DNA of 9,306 bases. It comes from a virus. Its lineage: Duplodnaviria > Heunggongvirae > Uroviricota > Caudoviricetes. The stretch is taken from positions 1-9,306 of the IMG/VR virus record IMGVR_UViG_3300013942_000118; one strand, written 5' to 3'. Under the pieces are notes generated by a model. The model ran no database searches. It saw only the letters and a program-made list of their open reading frames with translations, and had not been told where the DNA came from. Of the stretch, positions 1 to 6,125 are shown in pieces. Each line of letters begins with the position of its first letter. Position 1 is the stretch's first letter. Made by a program: the position numbers and the translations under genes.

Positions 1-825
1 TCACCCGGTGAAAGTACCAATAAAGGTTTCTACTTTGCTGTCTTTGAATTTTTCAACAAGCAGATCACGAAATTCGTTAGCCATTTCTTCCTGCACTGCT
101 TCCAGCTGAATAATGCGCAGAACCAGTACAGGGCGATCACCAGTGATAATGCTGAGGCGTAATTTAAACGGACGTTCTTTCAGGCCTTCAAACGGAACGC
201 ATTTAAACTCAAATGCTACTGGCATAATGTCTTTGGTTTTCGCTTCGACAGACTCCATCAGAGAGCGTTTGCCGCTGAAGTCATTGTCTTCAAAATCAGC
301 GGTCTGGTTTGCTTCAATCGTGATTTTACGGACCGCCGCAGCCGCTTTTGTTGCCTGAATGGCGTCACCATTAGCATCAAAGCCCACAAGGTAGTCGGCC
401 CAGTCTTCAATCCATTCTGCCAGTGACTTCTGGGAGTTACGCTCGCCGTTAACAGACAACAGGGCAGAGAACGGTGCTGTCTTTTTCAGTTTGAGAGTGG
501 CGGTGTTATCTGCGTGACCTGGTTCATCAATAGTACCCAGGTTAAGCATACTGACGGCTCGCATATTATCAGCATCGATAAAGCAGCGGGTGCCTTCATC
601 TGCAAGATCTTTAGAATAACGGGTAAAGTCATCGATGCTGGCAGTGGAAAGCGCACCACGGAAACGGAAGCGATTTAAATTAAATTTTTCCAGATCATGA
701 ATGCGGAAATTCTCAGGCAATGCCACAGCATCGGCACCAATCTTACTGATAATTTCATTAACACCCTGAGCAGAAATAAGGGCATGGATTTGATTAATTG
801 CGGTTGCGTCTAAGTTCTGAGACAT
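1..825 (-). CDS. yfdQ: DUF2303-family prophage protein (YfdQ-like), 274 aa
   Basis: Complete minus-strand ORF: ATG at 825-823, TGA at 3-1, GAGGA Shine-Dalgarno 6 nt upstream (complement of 833-837). Family assignment is from memory of YfdQ/DUF2303 in CPS-53-like prophages; no search run. Confidence 0.8.
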
Positions 826-890
826 AATAAGTCCTCACTATATAAAGATATTCAGTGATGAGATAAATAATCAGTTTATTAAAAACGATA

Positions 891-1253
891 TTAACGACCT
901 GCTGCGCGGAGTTTTCCGTCAGGTTCACCGGCAAGAGTCAGTAATTGTCCCTGGTCTTCCTGCAGAATAGTCAGGCGACCACCGCGATTGACATACATCG
1001 GCGTTTCGGTGGTGTCTTCTTCGGAAATTTTCCCGCGGTTAGTCGGGCGAACATATGAGAGTTTGTGTTTGATTTTTACACGGTTCTCATCAAACGGTTC
1101 GATTTCCAGGTTGAGCGAGACCTTACCTTTGGTTTTCGTGTTCATCACACCGGAAGCGACTTCACTGAGAACTGCGCCGATTTTGGTTTCAAATACGCCG
1201 CCGTCCAGCTCCCCGATAAATGCCTGCACATCAGTACTGCGTTCGCTAGCCAT
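891..1253 (-). CDS. Small prophage early protein, 120 aa (YfdP-like by recollection); start chosen at internal ATG
   Basis: The 226-aa track ORF has an Arg/Cys-rich, non-protein-like N-terminal 106 codons. The ATG at 1253-1251 (MASERSTDV...) has a GGGGAG Shine-Dalgarno 7 nt upstream and gives 120 aa directly upstream of, and co-oriented with, the DUF2303 gene. Stop TAA at 893-891. Confidence 0.65.
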   Translation of the reverse strand: MASERSTDVQAFIGELDGGVFETKIGAVLSEVASGVMNTKTKGKVSLNLEIEPFDENRVKIKHKLSYVRPTNRGKISEEDTTETPMYVNRGGRLTILQEDQGQLLTLAGEPDGKLRAAGR

Positions 1254-1271
1254 TTTGCTGCTCCCCATCAT

Positions 1272-1287
1272 ATCGACCCTGCAGGGT
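1272..1287. repeat. 16-bp perfect palindrome CGACCCTGCAGGGTCG in the leader of the leftward early operon
   Basis: Read directly from sequence; lies 19-34 nt upstream of the 120-aa gene start on the minus strand. Confidence 0.8.
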
Positions 1288-1302
1288 CGGTTGGTTTCTC
1301 CA

Positions 1303-1390
1303 CAAAACAGAGAAGAACACCTGCGGTGGCAGCCGCCCGGATGGATTGGGTTATGAGCCCGTCGTCCGGTGATGCTCTTCTCTGTTTTGT
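1303..1390. repeat. 15-bp perfect inverted repeat (ACAAAACAGAGAAGA / TCTTCTCTGTTTTGT) enclosing a 58-nt GC-rich loop
   Basis: Arms at 1303-1317 and 1376-1390 are exact reverse complements; read directly from sequence. Function unknown. Confidence 0.8.
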
Positions 1391-1722
1391 AAAAAGGACG
1401 GTACCAGCCGGAAGCAAGGGTACAAGCTGATACCGCCAGGACTACACACAGCATAAAGTTGTGGTGCCGGGTGCCTCCCGGTGCCTGGCGAAGGTTGCAC
1501 ACCAGGCGGGTGGGTATCCACAGAAGGTCGACTGTCAGCCTCAACCTTAACCCGCGTGCGCTGAGCCGCATTCACCACAACGCTAAGGATTCTCTCTGGT
1601 TGAAAATACTTAGCTGTTATGTGCCTGCTTTTAGCCACATCAGGCGAGGTGGACCTAGTTATTCCCCAACAACAAGGATTTGGTTAATCTGGATATCCCC
1701 AACAACTAGCTGAGTATTCAAC

Positions 1723-2244
1723 GTGATAGCTGAACTGTCTGCGGCTATGGCCGCTATAAAGGAGACTGCCGGTCTTGCTAAGGTTATTAATGACGCGAAA
1801 ACGGATGCAGAAGTTAAAGCTGCAACCATTGAACTCCAGAACAAACTAATCACGCTTCAGGCAGAATGCTTCTCTCTTGGCGATGCGATCCGCCTTCGTG
1901 ATGAAGAGGTGATGCATCTCAAAGCAAAAATTGCAGAGTTTGAAGATTTTTGTGCCAAGGTAGAAGGATATGTCCTTGATCAGCTTGACTCTGGTGCTTT
2001 TGTTTACTCTAAAAATGAAATTGTGAGTGGAAAAGAAATAACTGTGCATCTGTGCCCACTTTGTTATTCCAAAAATATAAAATCGATACTTCATCCGCTT
2101 CCAGTAGGTAAAACTTCTCATTTTCTTACAAGCCGTTGCCTTCACTGTGAAAATAAATTTCTTATGGAAAAAAATCCGATGTACGAACGACCAAGATCAT
2201 TACGTGAGTTGGGGCGAGATCTGAATTCGCCTTGGATTCCTTAA
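1723..2244 (+). CDS. Hypothetical protein with N-terminal coiled-coil and C-terminal CxxC-x25-CxxC zinc-ribbon, 173 aa from GTG 1723 (165 aa from ATG 1747)
   Basis: Clean ORF ending TAA 2242-2244 and followed by an intrinsic terminator. Markedly AT-rich compared with the flanking DNA, by eye. Heptad-like charged N-terminus, then HLCPLC...RCLHCE. No obvious Shine-Dalgarno or sigma70 promoter upstream. Transcribed convergently with the PL-like promoter. Confidence 0.55.
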   Translation: MIAELSAAMAAIKETAGLAKVINDAKTDAEVKAATIELQNKLITLQAECFSLGDAIRLRDEEVMHLKAKIAEFEDFCAKVEGYVLDQLDSGAFVYSKNEIVSGKEITVHLCPLCYSKNIKSILHPLPVGKTSHFLTSRCLHCENKFLMEKNPMYERPRSLRELGRDLNSPWIP

Positions 2245-2287
2245 ATCTTGCATTGGTTGGATGATACCCAGATTGTTAAAGAGCTAA

Positions 2288-2309
2288 GCGTCCTGTAGGG
2301 CGCTTTTTT
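2288..2309 (+). terminator. Rho-independent terminator downstream of the 173-aa ORF
   Basis: Stem GCGTCC (2288-2293) / GGGCGC (2298-2303) with one G-U pair, loop TGTA, followed by TTTTTT (2304-2309). Confidence 0.6.
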
Positions 2310-2388
2310 GTTGCTAACGAATCATCCTGGACTTCATATGCCCCAGGCGGATACTTCGTGGGCGTCCTGCCTGTTTGTTGTTTCTCTT

Positions 2389-2425
2389 GGGTACATTATG
2401 TATCTCAAAGGTACATTGTCAAGTA
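2389..2425 (-). promoter_or_regulatory. PL-like leftward promoter with GTAC-containing operator half-sites (OL-like)
   Basis: On the minus strand: TTGACA (complement of 2417-2422), 16-nt spacer, CATAAT (complement of 2395-2400). Overlapped by repeated GGTACATT motifs that match the GTAC cores of the operators at 3152-3223. Confidence 0.45.
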
Positions 2426-2449
2426 TAAAAAAACCTGCCGAAGCAGGTT
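2426..2449 (-). terminator. Rho-independent terminator of the repressor gene
   Basis: On the minus strand: stem CCTGC / GCAGG (plus 2434-2438 and 2443-2447), loop TTCG, followed by a U-run (plus A-run 2427-2433). Begins 13 nt after the repressor stop. Confidence 0.65.
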
Positions 2450-2461
2450 CATAAACATTGA

Positions 2462-3136
2462 TTAGGCTTTGATTTTGTATCTTCTTGGTTTTCCTGAGAA
2501 AATCACAGTTCCAATTATAGAGCAATTACCGTTGATCTTAATGTAAGGCTCAGGCCAGTTTGGGTTTAACGCTTTGAGATAACGCTGTGTCCCATCTTCT
2601 ATCAACCTTTTGAAGGTGGTTTCACCTGTATCGTGCATCAATGCAATAACGTCGTCACCGTGGCAGGCAGGTACTTCAGGATCGACAAAAATCATGTCTC
2701 CCGGGCGGTACTCATCAATCATTGAATCACCTATCACCCGCAAGATATAAGTCATTTCCCCACAGGGTACAGGGCAGGGATACGTTTCTGCTGTGCTCAA
2801 ATCAACCTCAGAATATCCAACTTCTTTCCATGCTCCGGCCTGTACCCATGATATGACAGGGACTAATGTGATTTGTTTATTAGTGATTGAAACATCAGGT
2901 TTTTTTGTGATGTTCGTTGTCTGGTGTTCTTGATCGAGCCATCCGACAGGCAGGTCGAAACATTTTTCGATGTGTCGTGCCATGCTGTCACCGATATTTT
3001 TAGTAGCACCATCTCCCATAAACCTGCTGGTCTGGGTTGGCTCGCGATCAATCATAGTGGCAAAGGAAGAATTCCCGCCAACACCATCTCTCAGTTTTCT
3101 GGCGTTAGACCGCCGGATGTCATGGATTGTTTTCAT
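2462..3136 (-). CDS. Prophage CI-like repressor, HTH plus S24 (LexA-like) autopeptidase domain, 224 aa
   Basis: ORF ATG 3136-3134 to TAA 2464-2462. C-terminal half carries an Ala-Gly candidate cleavage site (VQAGAW), the GDSM serine motif and a downstream Lys (TFKRL), typical of the LexA/cI S24 fold. Sits divergent from a Cro-like gene across a palindromic operator region. No Shine-Dalgarno before the ATG. Confidence 0.9.
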   Translation of the reverse strand: MKTIHDIRRSNARKLRDGVGGNSSFATMIDREPTQTSRFMGDGATKNIGDSMARHIEKCFDLPVGWLDQEHQTTNITKKPDVSITNKQITLVPVISWVQAGAWKEVGYSEVDLSTAETYPCPVPCGEMTYILRVIGDSMIDEYRPGDMIFVDPEVPACHGDDVIALMHDTGETTFKRLIEDGTQRYLKALNPNWPEPYIKINGNCSIIGTVIFSGKPRRYKIKA

Positions 3137-3226
3137 AACGAAATTAAAACCCTTGTACCGTTAAGGTACAAGTATCTTGAAGGTTCATTTCAATCATGTA
3201 ATATGTACACCGGAGGTACATATTGT
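3137..3226. promoter_or_regulatory. Divergent PRM/PR-type control region with two palindromic operators
   Basis: Operator 1 is CTTGTACC-N5-GGTACAAG (3152-3172); operator 2 is ATATGTAC-N7-GTACATAT (3201-3223). Candidate PR on plus: TTGAAG (3177-3182), 16-nt spacer, TAATAT (3199-3204), GGAGG Shine-Dalgarno 3212-3216, cro ATG 3227. Candidate PRM on minus: TTGTAC (complement of 3166-3171), 17-nt spacer, TTTAAT (complement of 3143-3148), ending about 6 nt before the repressor ATG. Confidence 0.6.
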
Positions 3227-3427
3227 ATGAAAGCGTATTGGGACTCTTTAACCAAAGAACAGCAGGGCGAGTTGGCCGGAAAAGTTGGCTCAACACCTAG
3301 CTACTTACGGCTGGTTTTCAATGGCTATAAAAAAGCCAGTTTTGTGCTGGCTAAAAAACTTGAGCAATGCACGTCAGGTGCAATTACGAAATCTGACTTA
3401 AGACCGGATATCTATCCGAAAGATTAG
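3227..3427 (+). CDS. Cro/YdaS-like small HTH regulator, 66 aa
   Basis: ATG at 3227 is in frame inside the longer track ORF and has a GGAGG Shine-Dalgarno 10 nt upstream; TAG at 3425-3427. Product MKAYWDSLTKEQQGELAGKVGSTPSYLRLVFNG... resembles YdaS/Cro-family HTH proteins. Divergent from the repressor. Confidence 0.8.
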   Translation: MKAYWDSLTKEQQGELAGKVGSTPSYLRLVFNGYKKASFVLAKKLEQCTSGAITKSDLRPDIYPKD

Positions 3428-3458
3428 CAGAACACTTTCAATTTTTAACCACAGAACG

Positions 3459-4022
3459 ATGAGGCTAATCGTGGGTAAGCATCACTGGAAAATAGAAAAA
3501 CAGCCTGAGTGGTACGTGAAAGCTGTCAGAAAAACTATCGCGGCGTTGCCGGGTGGTTACGCTGAAGCGGCTGACTGGCTGGATGTAACAGAGAACGCAT
3601 TATTTAACCGCCTTCGTGCCGATGGCGATCAGATTTTCCCGCTGGGATGGGCAATGATTTTGCAACGTGCTGGTGGAACTCACTTCATTGCTGACGCTGT
3701 GGCGCAGTCTGCAAATGGCGTCTTTGTGTCTCTTCCTGACGTCGAGGATGTGGACAACGCCGATATTAACCAGCGTCTGCTGGAAGTCATTGAACAGATC
3801 GGCAGTTATTCAAAACAGATTCGTTCAGCAATCGAAGACGGTGTAGTGGAACCGCATGAGAAGACAGCAATTAACGACGAGCTGTATCTCTCAATTTCGA
3901 AGCTGCAGGAGCATGCAGCACTGGTCTACAAAATCTTTTGCATTTCAGAAAGTAATGACGCCCGCGAGTGTGCAGCTCCGGGCGCCGTGGCGTGTCGTGA
4001 CTGTGGAGAAACTAACGCATGA
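3459..4022 (+). CDS. CII-like phage regulatory protein (CP76/YdaT-like family), 187 aa
   Basis: ORF immediately after the Cro-like gene, the usual position of cII/ydaT. Family assignment from memory, moderate. Start is uncertain: ATG 3459 has a weak Shine-Dalgarno, while in-frame GTG 3471 is preceded by GAGG. Stop overlaps the next ATG as ATGA. Confidence 0.65.
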
Positions 4023-4377
4023 ACAGTTTAACAACACACTACCGTCGCTCGCAACTGATTGCGCTTCCTGTACCGGGTGGAAAAGCGAAGGTGGAGTATT
4101 GCTATGCAGTTAATGTACCAGGTGACAGGGAAATTGTAACCCACAGCTTTGCTGAGTGGGCTGTGGGTGATTTCAACCGGCAGAAGGAGACAGTCCTTTG
4201 CGACAAGTTAACCGCTGGTTCAAAGATCACTACGGAGTGCCCGTCAGAGTCATTCGTTGGGAGCCGGAAACACAACGAGTTATCTACCTCCGCGAAGGCT
4301 ATGAGCATGAGTGCTTCAGCCCGCTCGAACAGTTTCGTCGTAAATTCAGGGAAATAGAGGTCGGTCATGAGCACTAA
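4019..4377 (+). pseudogene. Unknown early gene apparently split over two reading frames (one-base frameshift near 4170-4215), or a 112-aa ORF plus an overlapping 59-aa TTG-initiated ORF
   Basis: Frame of ATG 4019 gives a plausible N-terminus but a low-complexity Ser/Ala-rich tail to 4357. The -1 frame from about 4171 to TAA 4375-4377 reads ...[58 protein letters not shown], which looks like genuine protein and ends 8 nt into the next gene. No XXXYYYZ slippery heptamer seen. Confidence 0.4.
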
Positions 4378-5308
4378 ATTAACCGGCTATGTATGGGATG
4401 GTTGCGCTGCATCAGGCATGAAATTATCCAGCGTGGCAATTATGGCCCGCCTGGCTGATTTCAGTAATGACGAAGGTGTGTGCTGGCCATCAATTGAAAC
4501 TATTGCCCGTCAGATTGGCGCGGGGATGAGTACCGTCAGGACGGCTATCGCACGGCTGGAAGCAGAAGGCTGGTTAACGCGTAAGGCGCGTCGCCAGGGT
4601 AACCGCAATGCGTCGAATGTTTATCAGCTTAACGTTGCGAAGCTTCAGGCAGCGGCATTTTCTCAACTGTCAGATTCTGACCCGTCAAAATCTGACGCAT
4701 CAAAATCTGACCCGTCAAAATTTGATGCGTCGAAATCTGGCAAAAAAGCGGGTTTTCACCCGTCAGAATCTGGCGGGGATCCGTCAGTAAAATCAAAACA
4801 TGATCCGTCAGATAAAAAACCTTCTCGTCCGGACGCTTCGCAACCGGACACGCAGACGGATGAACAGGATTTTTTAACTCGCCATCCTGATGCGGTTGTA
4901 TTCAGCCCTAAAAAGCGCCAGTGGGGAACGCAGGATGATTTGACCTGCGCACAGTGGCTCTGGAAAAAAATCATCGCCCTGTACGAGCAAGCCGCCGCAT
5001 GTGACGGCGAGGTGGTTCGTCCCAAAGAACCGAACTGGACAGCCTGGGCAAACGAAATTCGCCTGATGTGTGTACAGGATGGTCGTACTCACAAACAAAT
5101 CTGCGAGATGTACAGCCGCGTCAGCCGCGATCCGTTCTGGTGCCGTAACGTGCTCAGCCCGTCGAAGTTGCGGGAAAAATGGGATGAGCTTTCCCTGCGC
5201 TTATCACCGTCCGTCAGCACGTACACCGAAAAACGCGAAGACCCGTACTTCAAATCCAGTTACGACAACGTGGACTACAGCCAGATCCCGGCAGGATTCA
5301 GGGGGTGA
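4367..5308 (+). CDS. Replication initiator (lambda O-like: N-terminal winged-helix DNA-binding domain, acidic/Ser-Pro-rich linker, C-terminal domain), 313 aa
   Basis: ATG 4367 with GAGG Shine-Dalgarno 6 nt upstream; TGA 5306-5308. N-terminal region resembles phage replication-initiator HTH domains. An iteron array lies inside the coding sequence, as for ori in lambda O. Sits at the O position of the early-right operon. Confidence 0.75.
   Translation: MSTKLTGYVWDGCAASGMKLSSVAIMARLADFSNDEGVCWPSIETIARQIGAGMSTVRTAIARLEAEGWLTRKARRQGNRNASNVYQLNVAKLQAAAFSQLSDSDPSKSDASKSDPSKFDASKSGKKAGFHPSESGGDPSVKSKHDPSDKKPSRPDASQPDTQTDEQDFLTRHPDAVVFSPKKRQWGTQDDLTCAQWLWKKIIALYEQAAACDGEVVRPKEPNWTAWANEIRLMCVQDGRTHKQICEMYSRVSRDPFWCRNVLSPSKLREKWDELSLRLSPSVSTYTEKREDPYFKSSYDNVDYSQIPAGFRG
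4669..4740. repeat. Iteron-like tandem array (about 5 units of 14-15 bp, consensus near CCGTCAAAATCTGA), putative phage origin
   Basis: Units GTCAGATTCTGAC (4669), GTCAAAATCTGAC (4684), ATCAAAATCTGAC (4698), GTCAAAATTTGAT (4714), GTCGAAATCTGGC (4728). Degenerate CCGTCAG copies continue to about 4815. Several units are internally palindromic. The array encodes the DPSKSDASKSDPSKFDASKS repeat in the initiator. Confidence 0.6.
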
Positions 5309-5310
5309 TC

Positions 5311-5799
5311 ATGAGTCTGTTAAATGACGTTCAGAAATTCATTGAAGCCCATCCGGGGTGTACTTCCGGAGACATTGCGGATGCTTTTGCAGGTTACTCA
5401 CGGCAGCGCGTTCTGCAGTCTGCAAGCAAGTTACGTCAGAGTGGGCGTGTGGCTCACCGTTGTGAAGGAGATACACGCAGACATTTCCCGCGCCTGACTG
5501 AGAGAGCGCAGGAGCCGGAACCACAACCAGTTCGTGAAACCAGACCTGTGCGCAATTTCTATGTCGGCACTAACGATCCACGGGTGATTTTGTGCCTGAC
5601 CCGCCAGGCTGAAGAACTGGAGTCCAGGGGCTTATACCGTCGTGCTGCAACGGTGTGGATGGCGGCATTCCGTGAAAGCCACTCCCAGCCAGAACGAAAC
5701 AATTTTCTGGCGCGTCGTGAACGGTGTTTACGGAAAAGCAGTAAGCGGGCTGCATCGGGTGAAGAGTGGTATCTGTCAGGGAATTACGTGGGGGCGTAA
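5311..5799 (+). CDS. PerC-family-like transcriptional regulator with an N-terminal HTH-like extension, 162 aa
   Basis: ATG 5311 with GGGGG Shine-Dalgarno 5 nt upstream (the track start GTG 5305 overlaps the previous stop). C-terminal segment AEELESRGLYRRAATVWMAAFRE...RRERCL resembles the PerC/Pch signature. From memory only, moderate. Confidence 0.55.
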   Translation: MSLLNDVQKFIEAHPGCTSGDIADAFAGYSRQRVLQSASKLRQSGRVAHRCEGDTRRHFPRLTERAQEPEPQPVRETRPVRNFYVGTNDPRVILCLTRQAEELESRGLYRRAATVWMAAFRESHSQPERNNFLARRERCLRKSSKRAASGEEWYLSGNYVGA

Positions 5800-6125
5800 T
5801 GACGACGTTAACTCAATGCCAGCAGCAGGTGCTGGATATGCTGATTTCTTATCAGAAAGAGCGTGGCTTTCCGCCAACCAATCAGGAGGTGGCAACCATG
5901 CTGGGATACCGTTCGGTGAATGCAGCGGTGGAGCATCTTCGCGCACTGGAGAAAAAAGGCGTCATCACGATAAAGCGTGGCGTGGCACGGGGGATAACGC
6001 TTCATACCGCTGTGAAGGACGACGACAGCGAGGCGGTCGGGATTATCCGCGCACTGCTTGCCGGTGAGGAAAACGCCAGGCTGCGTGCAGCCCACTGGTT
6101 ACATGAGAGGGGCCTGAAAGTATGA
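5799..6125 (+). CDS. LexA N-terminal DNA-binding-domain paralogue lacking the S24 peptidase domain, 108 aa
   Basis: Start ATG 5799 overlaps the upstream stop (TAATG). LTQCQQQVLDMLISYQKERGFPPTNQEVATMLGYRSVNAAVEHLRALEKKGVITIKRGVARGITL aligns by eye with E. coli LexA residues about 4-68 at roughly half identity. The protein stops after about 40 further residues with no peptidase motifs. Confidence 0.8.
   Translation: MTTLTQCQQQVLDMLISYQKERGFPPTNQEVATMLGYRSVNAAVEHLRALEKKGVITIKRGVARGITLHTAVKDDDSEAVGIIRALLAGEENARLRAAHWLHERGLKV

Follow-up and report, generated by a model that had tools for sequence, protein, structure and literature searches.

The window analysed here, by which we mean the whole stretch of 9,306 nucleotides presented (positions 1 to 9,306 of IMG/VR virus record IMGVR_UViG_3300013942_000118), contains the insulated early-left control (immunity) region of an e14/SfV-type lambdoid prophage of E. 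coli. Its leftward early promoter, PL, lies directly behind the terminator of a cI-type repressor gene, and the RNA read from it carries a conserved, structured 5′ leader followed by a boxA that matches the boxA of the E. coli K-12 rrnB leader at 13 of 13 positions. The explanation of the whole that we prefer, and that we consider probable with considerable room for error, is an early-left region in which PL transcription is protected by Nus-dependent boxA antitermination, possibly aided by the leader RNA. As read from the sequence, the narrower proposal that boxA would make PL transcription resistant to Rho through the host Nus factors has, in our judgement, a slightly better than even chance of being right. 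An earlier note on this DNA had recognized the promoter and two terminators around it, and had missed the leader RNA of about 65 nt, the transparency of the 2286-2305 hairpin to leftward transcription and the rrnB-identical boxA. The elements at the promoter are the following.

2424-2450, minus strand: intrinsic terminator of the repressor gene (8-bp GC-rich stem at 2431-2450, U7 at 2424-2430)
2395-2422, minus strand: PL promoter (-35 TTGACA at 2422-2417, 16-nt spacer, -10 CATAAT at 2400-2395)
2399-2415: operator OL1, TGTATCTCAAAGGTACA (TGTAT-N7-GTACA, one mismatch)
2379-2395: operator OL2, TGTTTCTCTTGGGTACA (TGTTT-N7-GTACA, two mismatches)

The OL/PL region is standard and well insulated, and it is the secure part of the interpretation. 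The repressor gene does end in an intrinsic terminator on the minus strand, as had been claimed; its fold (-11.6 kcal/mol, z -4.7) was matched in stability by none of 200 shuffles, and it is one-directional, the plus-strand reading being without a U tract. The -35 hexamer of PL begins two bases past this terminator. The promoter that the earlier note had read there agrees with the consensus at 11 of 12 positions and is the best promoter-like site of the window, with transcription predicted to start near 2388. The GGTACATT repeats said to overlap it are exact at 2390-2397 and 2410-2417 and are the right half-sites of two 17-bp operators, OL1, which fills the promoter spacer, and OL2, which covers the last -10 base and the predicted start. 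The operator motif TGTAC-N7-GTACA is perfect at OR, between cI and cro (3154-3170 and 3204-3220), where a third and weaker copy lies at 3171-3187; the window holds seven occurrences of the motif against 2.7 expected, a count reached in 3 of 200 shuffles. Conservation of this immunity type was judged on 33 distinct versions from viral contigs. The -35, the -10 and the operator half-sites of PL are invariant in all 33, while the operator centres vary freely; the stem of the cI terminator shows compensatory change, OL1 becomes a perfect TGTACC-N5-GGTACA palindrome in divergent relatives, and the TGTACC half-site of OL2 is invariant across versions. Thus a sigma-70 promoter points away from the repressor 3′ end toward the early-left genes, two operators with the OR consensus overlap it, and a CI-type repressor with a LexA-like autocleavage domain is encoded next to it, as in a lambdoid OL/PL region. 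The promoter, operators and terminators belong to textbook lambdoid biology, and part of them can be found annotated in sister phages: the SfV record has a terminator at the equivalent site and the Ayreon record has both terminator and promoter. The K-12 prophage e14 shares its PL, OL and leader with the window, and there ymfJ, the first gene read leftward, rises late in SOS induction, as do intE and ymfM (PMC11002266). The late rise of ymfJ and intE is indirect support for leftward transcription that is SOS-inducible and depends on the repressor.

Immediately downstream of PL the transcript contains a structured RNA, identified by covariation and with a covariance model (CM).

2316-2379, minus strand: structured 5′ leader RNA, about 65 nt
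2379-2374 pairing with 2321-2316, minus strand: leader helix P1
2371-2369 pairing with 2363-2361, minus strand: invariant mini-hairpin GGC-AGGAN-GCC
2347-2343 pairing with 2330-2326, minus strand: leader helix P2

The segment 2315-2385 retains 78-98% identity in phages of Escherichia, Shigella, Salmonella (ST64B, SPN3UB, SEN34), Klebsiella, Citrobacter, Pantoea, Yersinia and Pectobacterium, and two pattern scans of viral contigs together with one of species-representative genomes returned several hundred copies of the leader. Alignment A1, made of 66 diverse copies, was the basis of the covariation counts and of the CM. In this alignment P1 occurs as GCGAA/UUCGC, GUCAUC/GAUGAC, CCACC/GGUGG and AUCGAA/UUCGAU, and P2 as CCUGG/CCAGG, CCGAC/GUCGG, CACC/GGUG, CUACC/GGUAG and others. 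Paired cells amount to 93.8% compared with 72.2% after shuffling (0 of 500 shuffles), the covariation score is 0.512 compared with 0.134 for shuffled alignments and at most 0.121 for slid controls, and double changes are found at eight pairs. RNAalifold independently recovers P1 and P2. Two unpaired stretches, AGGCAGGA.GCCCACGAAGUAG and GAUGA, are invariant. GUAGC and the loop of P2 could form a pseudoknot, with a compatibility of 95.5%; its variation is confined to G-C and G.U, as would fit folding of the PL-sense strand, and it has no double changes. Enterobacterales species-representative genomes contain 90 full copies with many different arm variants, and among these P1 is paired at 5 or 6 of 6 positions in 86 and P2 at 4 or 5 of 5 positions in 87. 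The leader always takes the 5′ end of early-left transcripts; it stands directly behind at least 10 unrelated promoter/operator sequences, and so it begins within roughly the first 20 nt of the transcript. The copies in mEp237, SPN3UB and ZF40 have the repressor gene on one side and the kil/recE early-left genes on the other. The CM finds a single copy in the window, at 2308-2381 on the minus strand (86.6 bits), and none at PR. Rfam 15 gave no family for the leader or the boxA block in a scan of the whole window and a focused scan of 2240-2460, and a text search of the literature for the invariant leader sequence gave no match. A leader peptide encoded within the element was rejected, since its AUG is not conserved.

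In many phages a second leader module, ..GCGCAGCAGGU..AACGUUCCGC-loop-GGCGAUAAGGCA.., follows the leader RNA in place of the hairpin and boxA described below. It is present in mEp237 (2568-2620 of locus L360) and in many of the loci L130-L236, for example L163 and L159, with covariation in its small hairpin (CGCC/GGCG versus CGUC/GACG). A few loci have the module ahead of the leader, and L025 and L072 have it between leader and boxA.

The PL transcript next crosses a hairpin that belongs to a converging gene.

1723-2244, plus strand: accessory open reading frame (ORF), 173 aa, PHROG 1244, with a coiled-coil N-terminus and a CxxC...CxxC C-terminus, converging on PL
2286-2310, plus strand: accessory-gene terminator (stem 2286-2305, then T6), 41 nt past the ORF stop codon

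On the plus strand this is the terminator facing PL that the earlier note had described. Its folding energy of -11.5 kcal/mol is by itself unremarkable (z -1.0), and its stem is kept in many phages while the loops vary. The earlier note had further taken the complement of this terminator as the first obstacle to leftward transcription, a point that did not hold. The leftward reading, AAAAAAGCGCCCUACAGGACGCUU, has a run of A before the hairpin and the tail AGCUCUUU after it, not a U run, and its stability is -6.8 to -7.5 kcal/mol (centroid -3.9), lower than on the plus strand because a U.G wobble there becomes a C.A mismatch on the minus strand. A terminator scan of the minus strand did not call the leftward reading of 2286-2305; the stem at 2431-2450 on the minus strand and that at 2286-2305 on the plus strand have the make-up of intrinsic terminators, and the leftward reading of the latter does not. 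Across 24 variants the stem is kept, including the C.A mismatch, with differing loops, and the plus strand folds better in 22 of them (mean -10.0 versus -6.5 kcal/mol). The mismatch, the missing U tract and the retained asymmetry together indicate that the hairpin is a one-way terminator, transparent to PL, and such a strand-asymmetric hairpin bears on how accessory genes are insulated inside phage operons.

Directly after this hairpin the PL transcript contains the boxA.

2284-2272, minus strand: boxA, GCUCUUUAACAAU

The 12-mer GCUCUUUAACAA (2284-2273) is exact and occurs once in the window. It is followed by a conserved AUCUGG(A/G)UAUC extension that reaches to about 2261, beyond which the sequence varies with the cargo. 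The boxA core lies within 255 nt of the leader in 14 of 90 unbiased leader copies, compared with 0.35 expected, mostly 34-37 nt past P1, and in 148 distinct leader contexts it was found 40 times downstream in the sense orientation, never upstream and never in antisense. Moreover, boxA and its flanks (GCUUAGCUCUUUAACAAUCUGGAUAUCC) are kept in PL leaders that have no hairpin or even no 5′ element, ahead of different cargo. The enrichment, the bias of strand and position and the retention without the hairpin argue that boxA is not a chance feature of the window. The RNA 3′ of boxA has neither a boxB nor another conserved hairpin. A search for an N-like gene, made without a hidden Markov model scan for N families, found none: what first follows boxA is an ORF for an acidic protein of 68 aa, or else ORFs that are shadows of the antisense gene, and the records of mEp237, SPN3UB and ZF40 have no N gene annotated either. 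Of a lambda-type nut site the window therefore has boxA and no boxB, and no arginine-rich N-family protein was found. What it does have is the arrangement of an rrn-type leader, a consensus boxA near the start of a long untranslated transcript. A boxA-like sequence, ACTCTTTAACCA, occurs in the first codons of cro (3243-3254, plus strand), and 9 nt of it are the complement of the PL boxA region; it was rejected as a signal, since with two mismatches it does not exceed chance expectation and its conservation is that of coding sequence.

Downstream of boxA the leftward RNA runs through the antisense of the accessory ORF, a conserved block at 1614-1722, an RNA related to STnc100 and finally the early-left protein genes.

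1389-1611, minus strand: STnc100-like RNA (Rfam RF02076, full-length match, 40.5 bits, E 3.5e-6)
1437-1391, minus strand: terminator-like hairpin ending the STnc100-like RNA (12-bp stem at 1397-1437, 17-nt loop, CUUUUUAC)
891-1253, minus strand: yfdP, first early-left protein gene on the PL transcript
1-825, minus strand: yfdQ, next after yfdP on the PL transcript

According to the earlier note, leftward RNA meets the antisense of the accessory ORF and then structured RNA on its way to the early-left genes, and this stands. The 'structured leader', at 1260-1720, matches the STnc100-like RNA on the minus strand, and so it belongs to the PL transcript and not to the plus-strand ORF as its leader. 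The match is below the RF02076 gathering score of 47 bits, which makes the RNA a relative and not a certified member of the family. The leftward RNA extends for 1135 nt between 2388 and the yfdP start codon without a credible ORF, and it has C-rich and G-poor stretches at RNA positions 79-195 and 352-468. As far as the sequence can tell, the actual intrinsic-terminator-like barrier to PL lies at 1397-1437 and not at 2288-2309; the 1397-1437 hairpin has a predicted stability of -25.4 kcal/mol (z -3.9) and was also picked up by the terminator scan. The SfV record has a rho-independent terminator between orf33 and orf32, which from the layout, without alignment, we infer to be its equivalent. A promoter scan found no minus-strand promoter-like site between 1437 and 1254. 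The untranslated 1135 nt, the C-over-G stretches and the 1397-1437 hairpin, with no N-like ORF found, suggest a need for antitermination if PL transcription is to reach the early-left genes. The STnc100-like region is translated in the e14 ymfH protein (5070-5381 of locus L008) and in the window ORFs 1351-1638 and 891-1571, which are probably not real proteins. Past the STnc100-like terminator the PL transcript has further structure, a long inverted repeat (about 17 bp, ACAAAACAGAGAAGA..) at 1303-1390 that encloses roughly 50 nt, and a GC hairpin at 1272-1291 just upstream of the yfdP ribosome-binding site.

Given this anatomy, the region might work as follows. In the lysogen, CI (YmfK) would bind OL1 and OL2 and block PL, while the cI terminator would halt PRM transcripts just before PL and so keep read-through from the early-left operon, and the one-directional terminator would stop transcripts of the accessory gene before PL and cI. 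Once CI is cleaved, PL would fire at about 2388. The nascent RNA would first fold into the three-helix leader (2379-2316), the polymerase would then pass the accessory terminator, which leftward is only a mismatched hairpin without a U tract, and the RNA would expose the rrn-type boxA (2284-2272). As on the leaders of rRNA and CRISPR transcripts, this boxA would recruit NusB/NusE and the remaining Nus factors of the host, perhaps with the leader RNA as an aid. The polymerase would then resist Rho over roughly 1.1 kb, comprising the accessory antisense and the STnc100-like RNA, and reach yfdP, yfdQ and beyond; reading across the accessory gene may also silence it, by interference or by antisense pairing.

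As in lambda OL/PL-nutL-N, an S24-domain repressor acts with operators of a type common to OL and OR that overlap a strong leftward promoter, and the leader has a boxA shortly after the start. In contrast to lambda, which has boxB and N, the window has no boxB 3′ of boxA and no N-like arginine-rich protein that we could find; its boxA is the full rrn form, whereas that of lambda is the weaker CGCUCUUA; it has two operators at OL where lambda has three; and the cI terminator abuts the -35 hexamer, whereas lambda has rexAB between cI and PL. The lambda leader (AUCAGCAGGACGCAC...AUGAAGGUGAC-GCUCUUAA) has only short strings before boxA (CAGGACGC, AUGA) in common with the window leader and gives no CM match, and it was discarded as a relative. 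The E. coli rrn leader (boxB-boxA-boxC) has the identical boxA 13-mer, likewise preceded by an A-rich hairpin (rrnB AAAAAGCG...GCACUGCUCUUUAACAAU). Like the boxA leaders of rrn and CRISPR transcripts, that of the window heads a long untranslated and otherwise Rho-target transcript (PMC7665894), and by analogy it would use host factors only. It differs from rrn in lying in a repressor-controlled phage early operon, in being preceded by a hairpin that doubles as an opposite-strand terminator, and in having the conserved extension AUCUGGAUAUCC instead of a GU-rich boxC. BoxA acts in Nus-factor antitermination on rRNA and CRISPR leaders, and boxA-only antitermination of untranslated RNA has precedent (PMC7665894, PMC12360218).

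Several points weigh against Nus-dependent boxA antitermination at PL. Complexes of the rrn type are poor at reading through intrinsic terminators, so that more than boxA would be required to account for reading past the 1397-1437 hairpin. Only about 16% of the unbiased leader copies have a boxA behind them, which leaves most without one, and the predicted correlation between its presence and the length of the following untranslated stretch was not found. SfV and e14 have the same PL and leader as the window without the hairpin and boxA, while Ayreon and cdtI have the same cI and PL without the leader RNA. For the leader itself, the counts of G.U versus C.A in P1 and P2 leave the folding strand undecided, and the window copy has an A.C mismatch in P1. 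Position 2351 is T in the window and in strain S43 and G in 64 of the 66 aligned copies (GUAG to GUAU), a change that would break one proposed pseudoknot pair and may be decay in a defective prophage. The prophage is defective, by a stop in its Q gene and by truncation through an IS3 element, so that its PL signals may no longer be in use. Finally, boxA with NusB/E can also promote Rho termination, for example at suhB and hisG (PMC12360218).

A different assignment of roles, which is possible but which we hold to be doubtful, makes the conserved 5′ leader RNA the main antitermination device and boxA an optional add-on. The leader would then be put-like in function and unrelated to put in sequence, an RNA acting in cis that accompanies the polymerase from which it came and renders it resistant to termination. 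HK022 is a precedent, being a lambdoid phage without N-type antitermination that uses cis-acting put RNA (PMC9378689). The putL and putR RNAs of HK022 and the putL-like RNA annotated in HK639 resemble the window leader in being structured RNAs of about 65-75 nt, with putL at the very start of the PL transcript (PMC9378689), a position that the window leader also takes, behind many unrelated promoters; any action of the latter on the polymerase is an analogy drawn from this placement. Its covariation-proven helices over about 65 nt and some 25 invariant unpaired bases across genera point to a constant host partner, and no N gene was seen in the leader-carrying phages examined. The e14 genes ymfJ and intE are induced together (PMC11002266), despite the STnc100-like region that separates them. 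A co-directional hairpin with a U tract lies within 2.5 kb downstream in 54 of 151 contexts, compared with 21 in the opposite direction and 1 in shuffles. Many of these 54 loosely defined hairpins are, however, the same STnc100-type element, and by a strict definition a co-directional terminator is present in only 10 of 156 contexts. Furthermore, the window leader forms a three-helix junction where put has two long stems, it occurs once, at PL and not at PR, unlike putL/putR, and homology with put was dismissed when HK022 putL was read directly and the leader CM gave no match to HK022 putL or putR or to the HK639 RNA. Put-carrying and leader-carrying phages are disjoint sets by BLAST, and Ayreon and cdtI do with the same cI and PL and no leader. 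The STnc100-like region was also considered as a put-like element and rejected, as the Rfam STnc100 model gives no match in the HK022 PL/PR region.

It is also conceivable, if rather unlikely, that there is no dedicated antitermination at all. On that account the hairpin-boxA block would be the 3′ end of a mobile accessory cassette with an incidental boxA match, the leader would serve 5′ stabilization, processing or the binding of a regulator, and PL RNA would mostly end at about 1392 as an STnc100-like small RNA, with yfdP and yfdQ read from a promoter of their own. A Klebsiella phage with another type of immunity region and without the 5′ leader does carry the block together with the accessory ORF, and an imperfect inverted repeat, AATCTGG(A/G)TATC, flanks the ORF (1686-1697, plus strand; 2261-2272, minus strand) and suggests that it moves as a cassette, or was inverted, between two junction motifs. 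The scarcity of boxA among leader copies, its independence of untranslated length and the terminator-like hairpin ahead of yfdP fit this account as well. Against it, boxA is kept, always in the PL sense, without the hairpin and ahead of a PL-sense 68-aa ORF instead of a converging gene; its strand and position bias (40/0/0) and its thirteen consecutive bases in common with rrnB speak for a signal; the stretch from 1437 to 1254 offers yfdP no promoter-like site; and e14 intE rises with ymfJ (PMC11002266). That the layout mainly controls the accessory ORF, with PL on induction colliding with or pairing to its mRNA and so turning off a gene expressed in the lysogen, is improbable, for although several sampled prophages, not all of one immunity type, have the PHROG 1244 gene in antisense right behind the PL leader, and although it has its own terminator facing PL, no convincing promoter for it was found, leader, hairpin and boxA also precede a PL-sense ORF or other cargo and are thus not tied to it, and antisense silencing is automatic with any PL read-through. 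The leader is also found ahead of other cargo, so that to silence the accessory gene need not be the purpose of the layout; silencing is most likely a by-product of PL read-through. Of the two alternatives in the earlier note, antitermination as a candidate mechanism finds support in sequence signals, namely the rrn-type boxA and the 5′ leader RNA, which takes the place that nutL and putL have in other phages, and deliberate antisense control is indistinguishable from a side effect.

Returning to Nus-dependent antitermination at PL, both this leader RNA family and the combination of an rrn-identical boxA with a repressor-controlled phage promoter without N appear to be undescribed in Rfam 15 and the searchable literature. 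The phages with the leader include e14, SfV/SfII/SfIV, ST64B, mEp237, SPN3UB, ZF40 and prophages in about 90 Enterobacterales species, and how this group passes the terminators and Rho in its early-left operon is likewise undescribed in these sources. The leader RNA and, in a subset, boxA are concrete and mutable candidates for early-left antitermination, and as e14 carries the leader they are testable in E. coli K-12 itself. Our tentative suggestion, which may well prove wrong, is that the leader represents a new and widespread family of cis-acting processive-antitermination RNA, a functional counterpart of HK022 put that temperate Enterobacterales phages with no N gene found would use at PL, in some of them coupled to a host-type boxA. 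If this were true, the early-left operon would be read without any phage antiterminator protein.

The accessory ORF is found in the same orientation to PL in several sampled prophages, of more than one immunity type. A search for defence systems (PADLOC) gave no match for it, and Pfam gave only a sub-threshold DUF641. For its promoter, both the promoter scan of the window and the conserved block upstream were considered, and neither gave a convincing candidate. This block of 100 nt (1614-1722) has about 86% identity between E. coli and Klebsiella phages, and the ORF is less conserved, with 45% amino-acid identity between the same groups. The right copy of the inverted repeat around the ORF coincides with the conserved boxA extension.

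The remaining genes of the immunity region are arranged as follows.

2462-3136, minus strand: cI-type repressor gene, ymfK homologue, with an N-terminal region followed by a Peptidase_S24 autocleavage domain
3227-3427: cro/ymfT, on the opposite side of OR from cI
3459-4022: cII-like ymfL

The repressor protein matches Pfam Peptidase_S24 at 1.5e-26 and PHROG 4 ('transcriptional repressor'), and its gene is labelled ymfK or cI in the annotations of relatives. Over bases 1200-3500 the window does not differ from the chromosome of strain S43 (100% identity), and phages PhiR29, SfIV, SfV, Ayreon and cdtI match this stretch at 91-98%. The PL module (promoter, operators and terminators) is conserved in e14, SfV, SfIV, PhiR29, Ayreon and cdtI. 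SfV, SfIV, Ayreon, cdtI and K-12 e14 (ymfK-ymfT-ymfL) have the cI, cro and cII-like genes, the cI terminator, PL and the operators in common with the window (91-100% identity); the 5′ leader RNA is common to the window, SfV, SfIV and e14. The cargo between PL and yfdP differs, being orf33 in SfV, ymfJ in e14, a 68-aa ORF in SfIV and Kati, and the converging PHROG 1244 gene in the window and PhiR29.

Elsewhere in the window, a gene for a Q-family late antiterminator (8320-8697, plus strand) has an in-frame stop at codon 56, from which the prophage is probably defective for late transcription, and an IS3-family orfA (8998-9306, plus strand) runs past the window end, so that an insertion sequence breaks the right arm of the prophage. 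The O-like replication gene (4367-5308) contains four 15-bp direct repeats (TCTGACCCGTCAAAA) at 4676-4739, which are probably origin iterons; an Rfam match to mir-5880 was spurious and caused by these repeats. Ten N, that is masked or unknown bases, stand at 6370-6379 within the ORF at 6122-6394.

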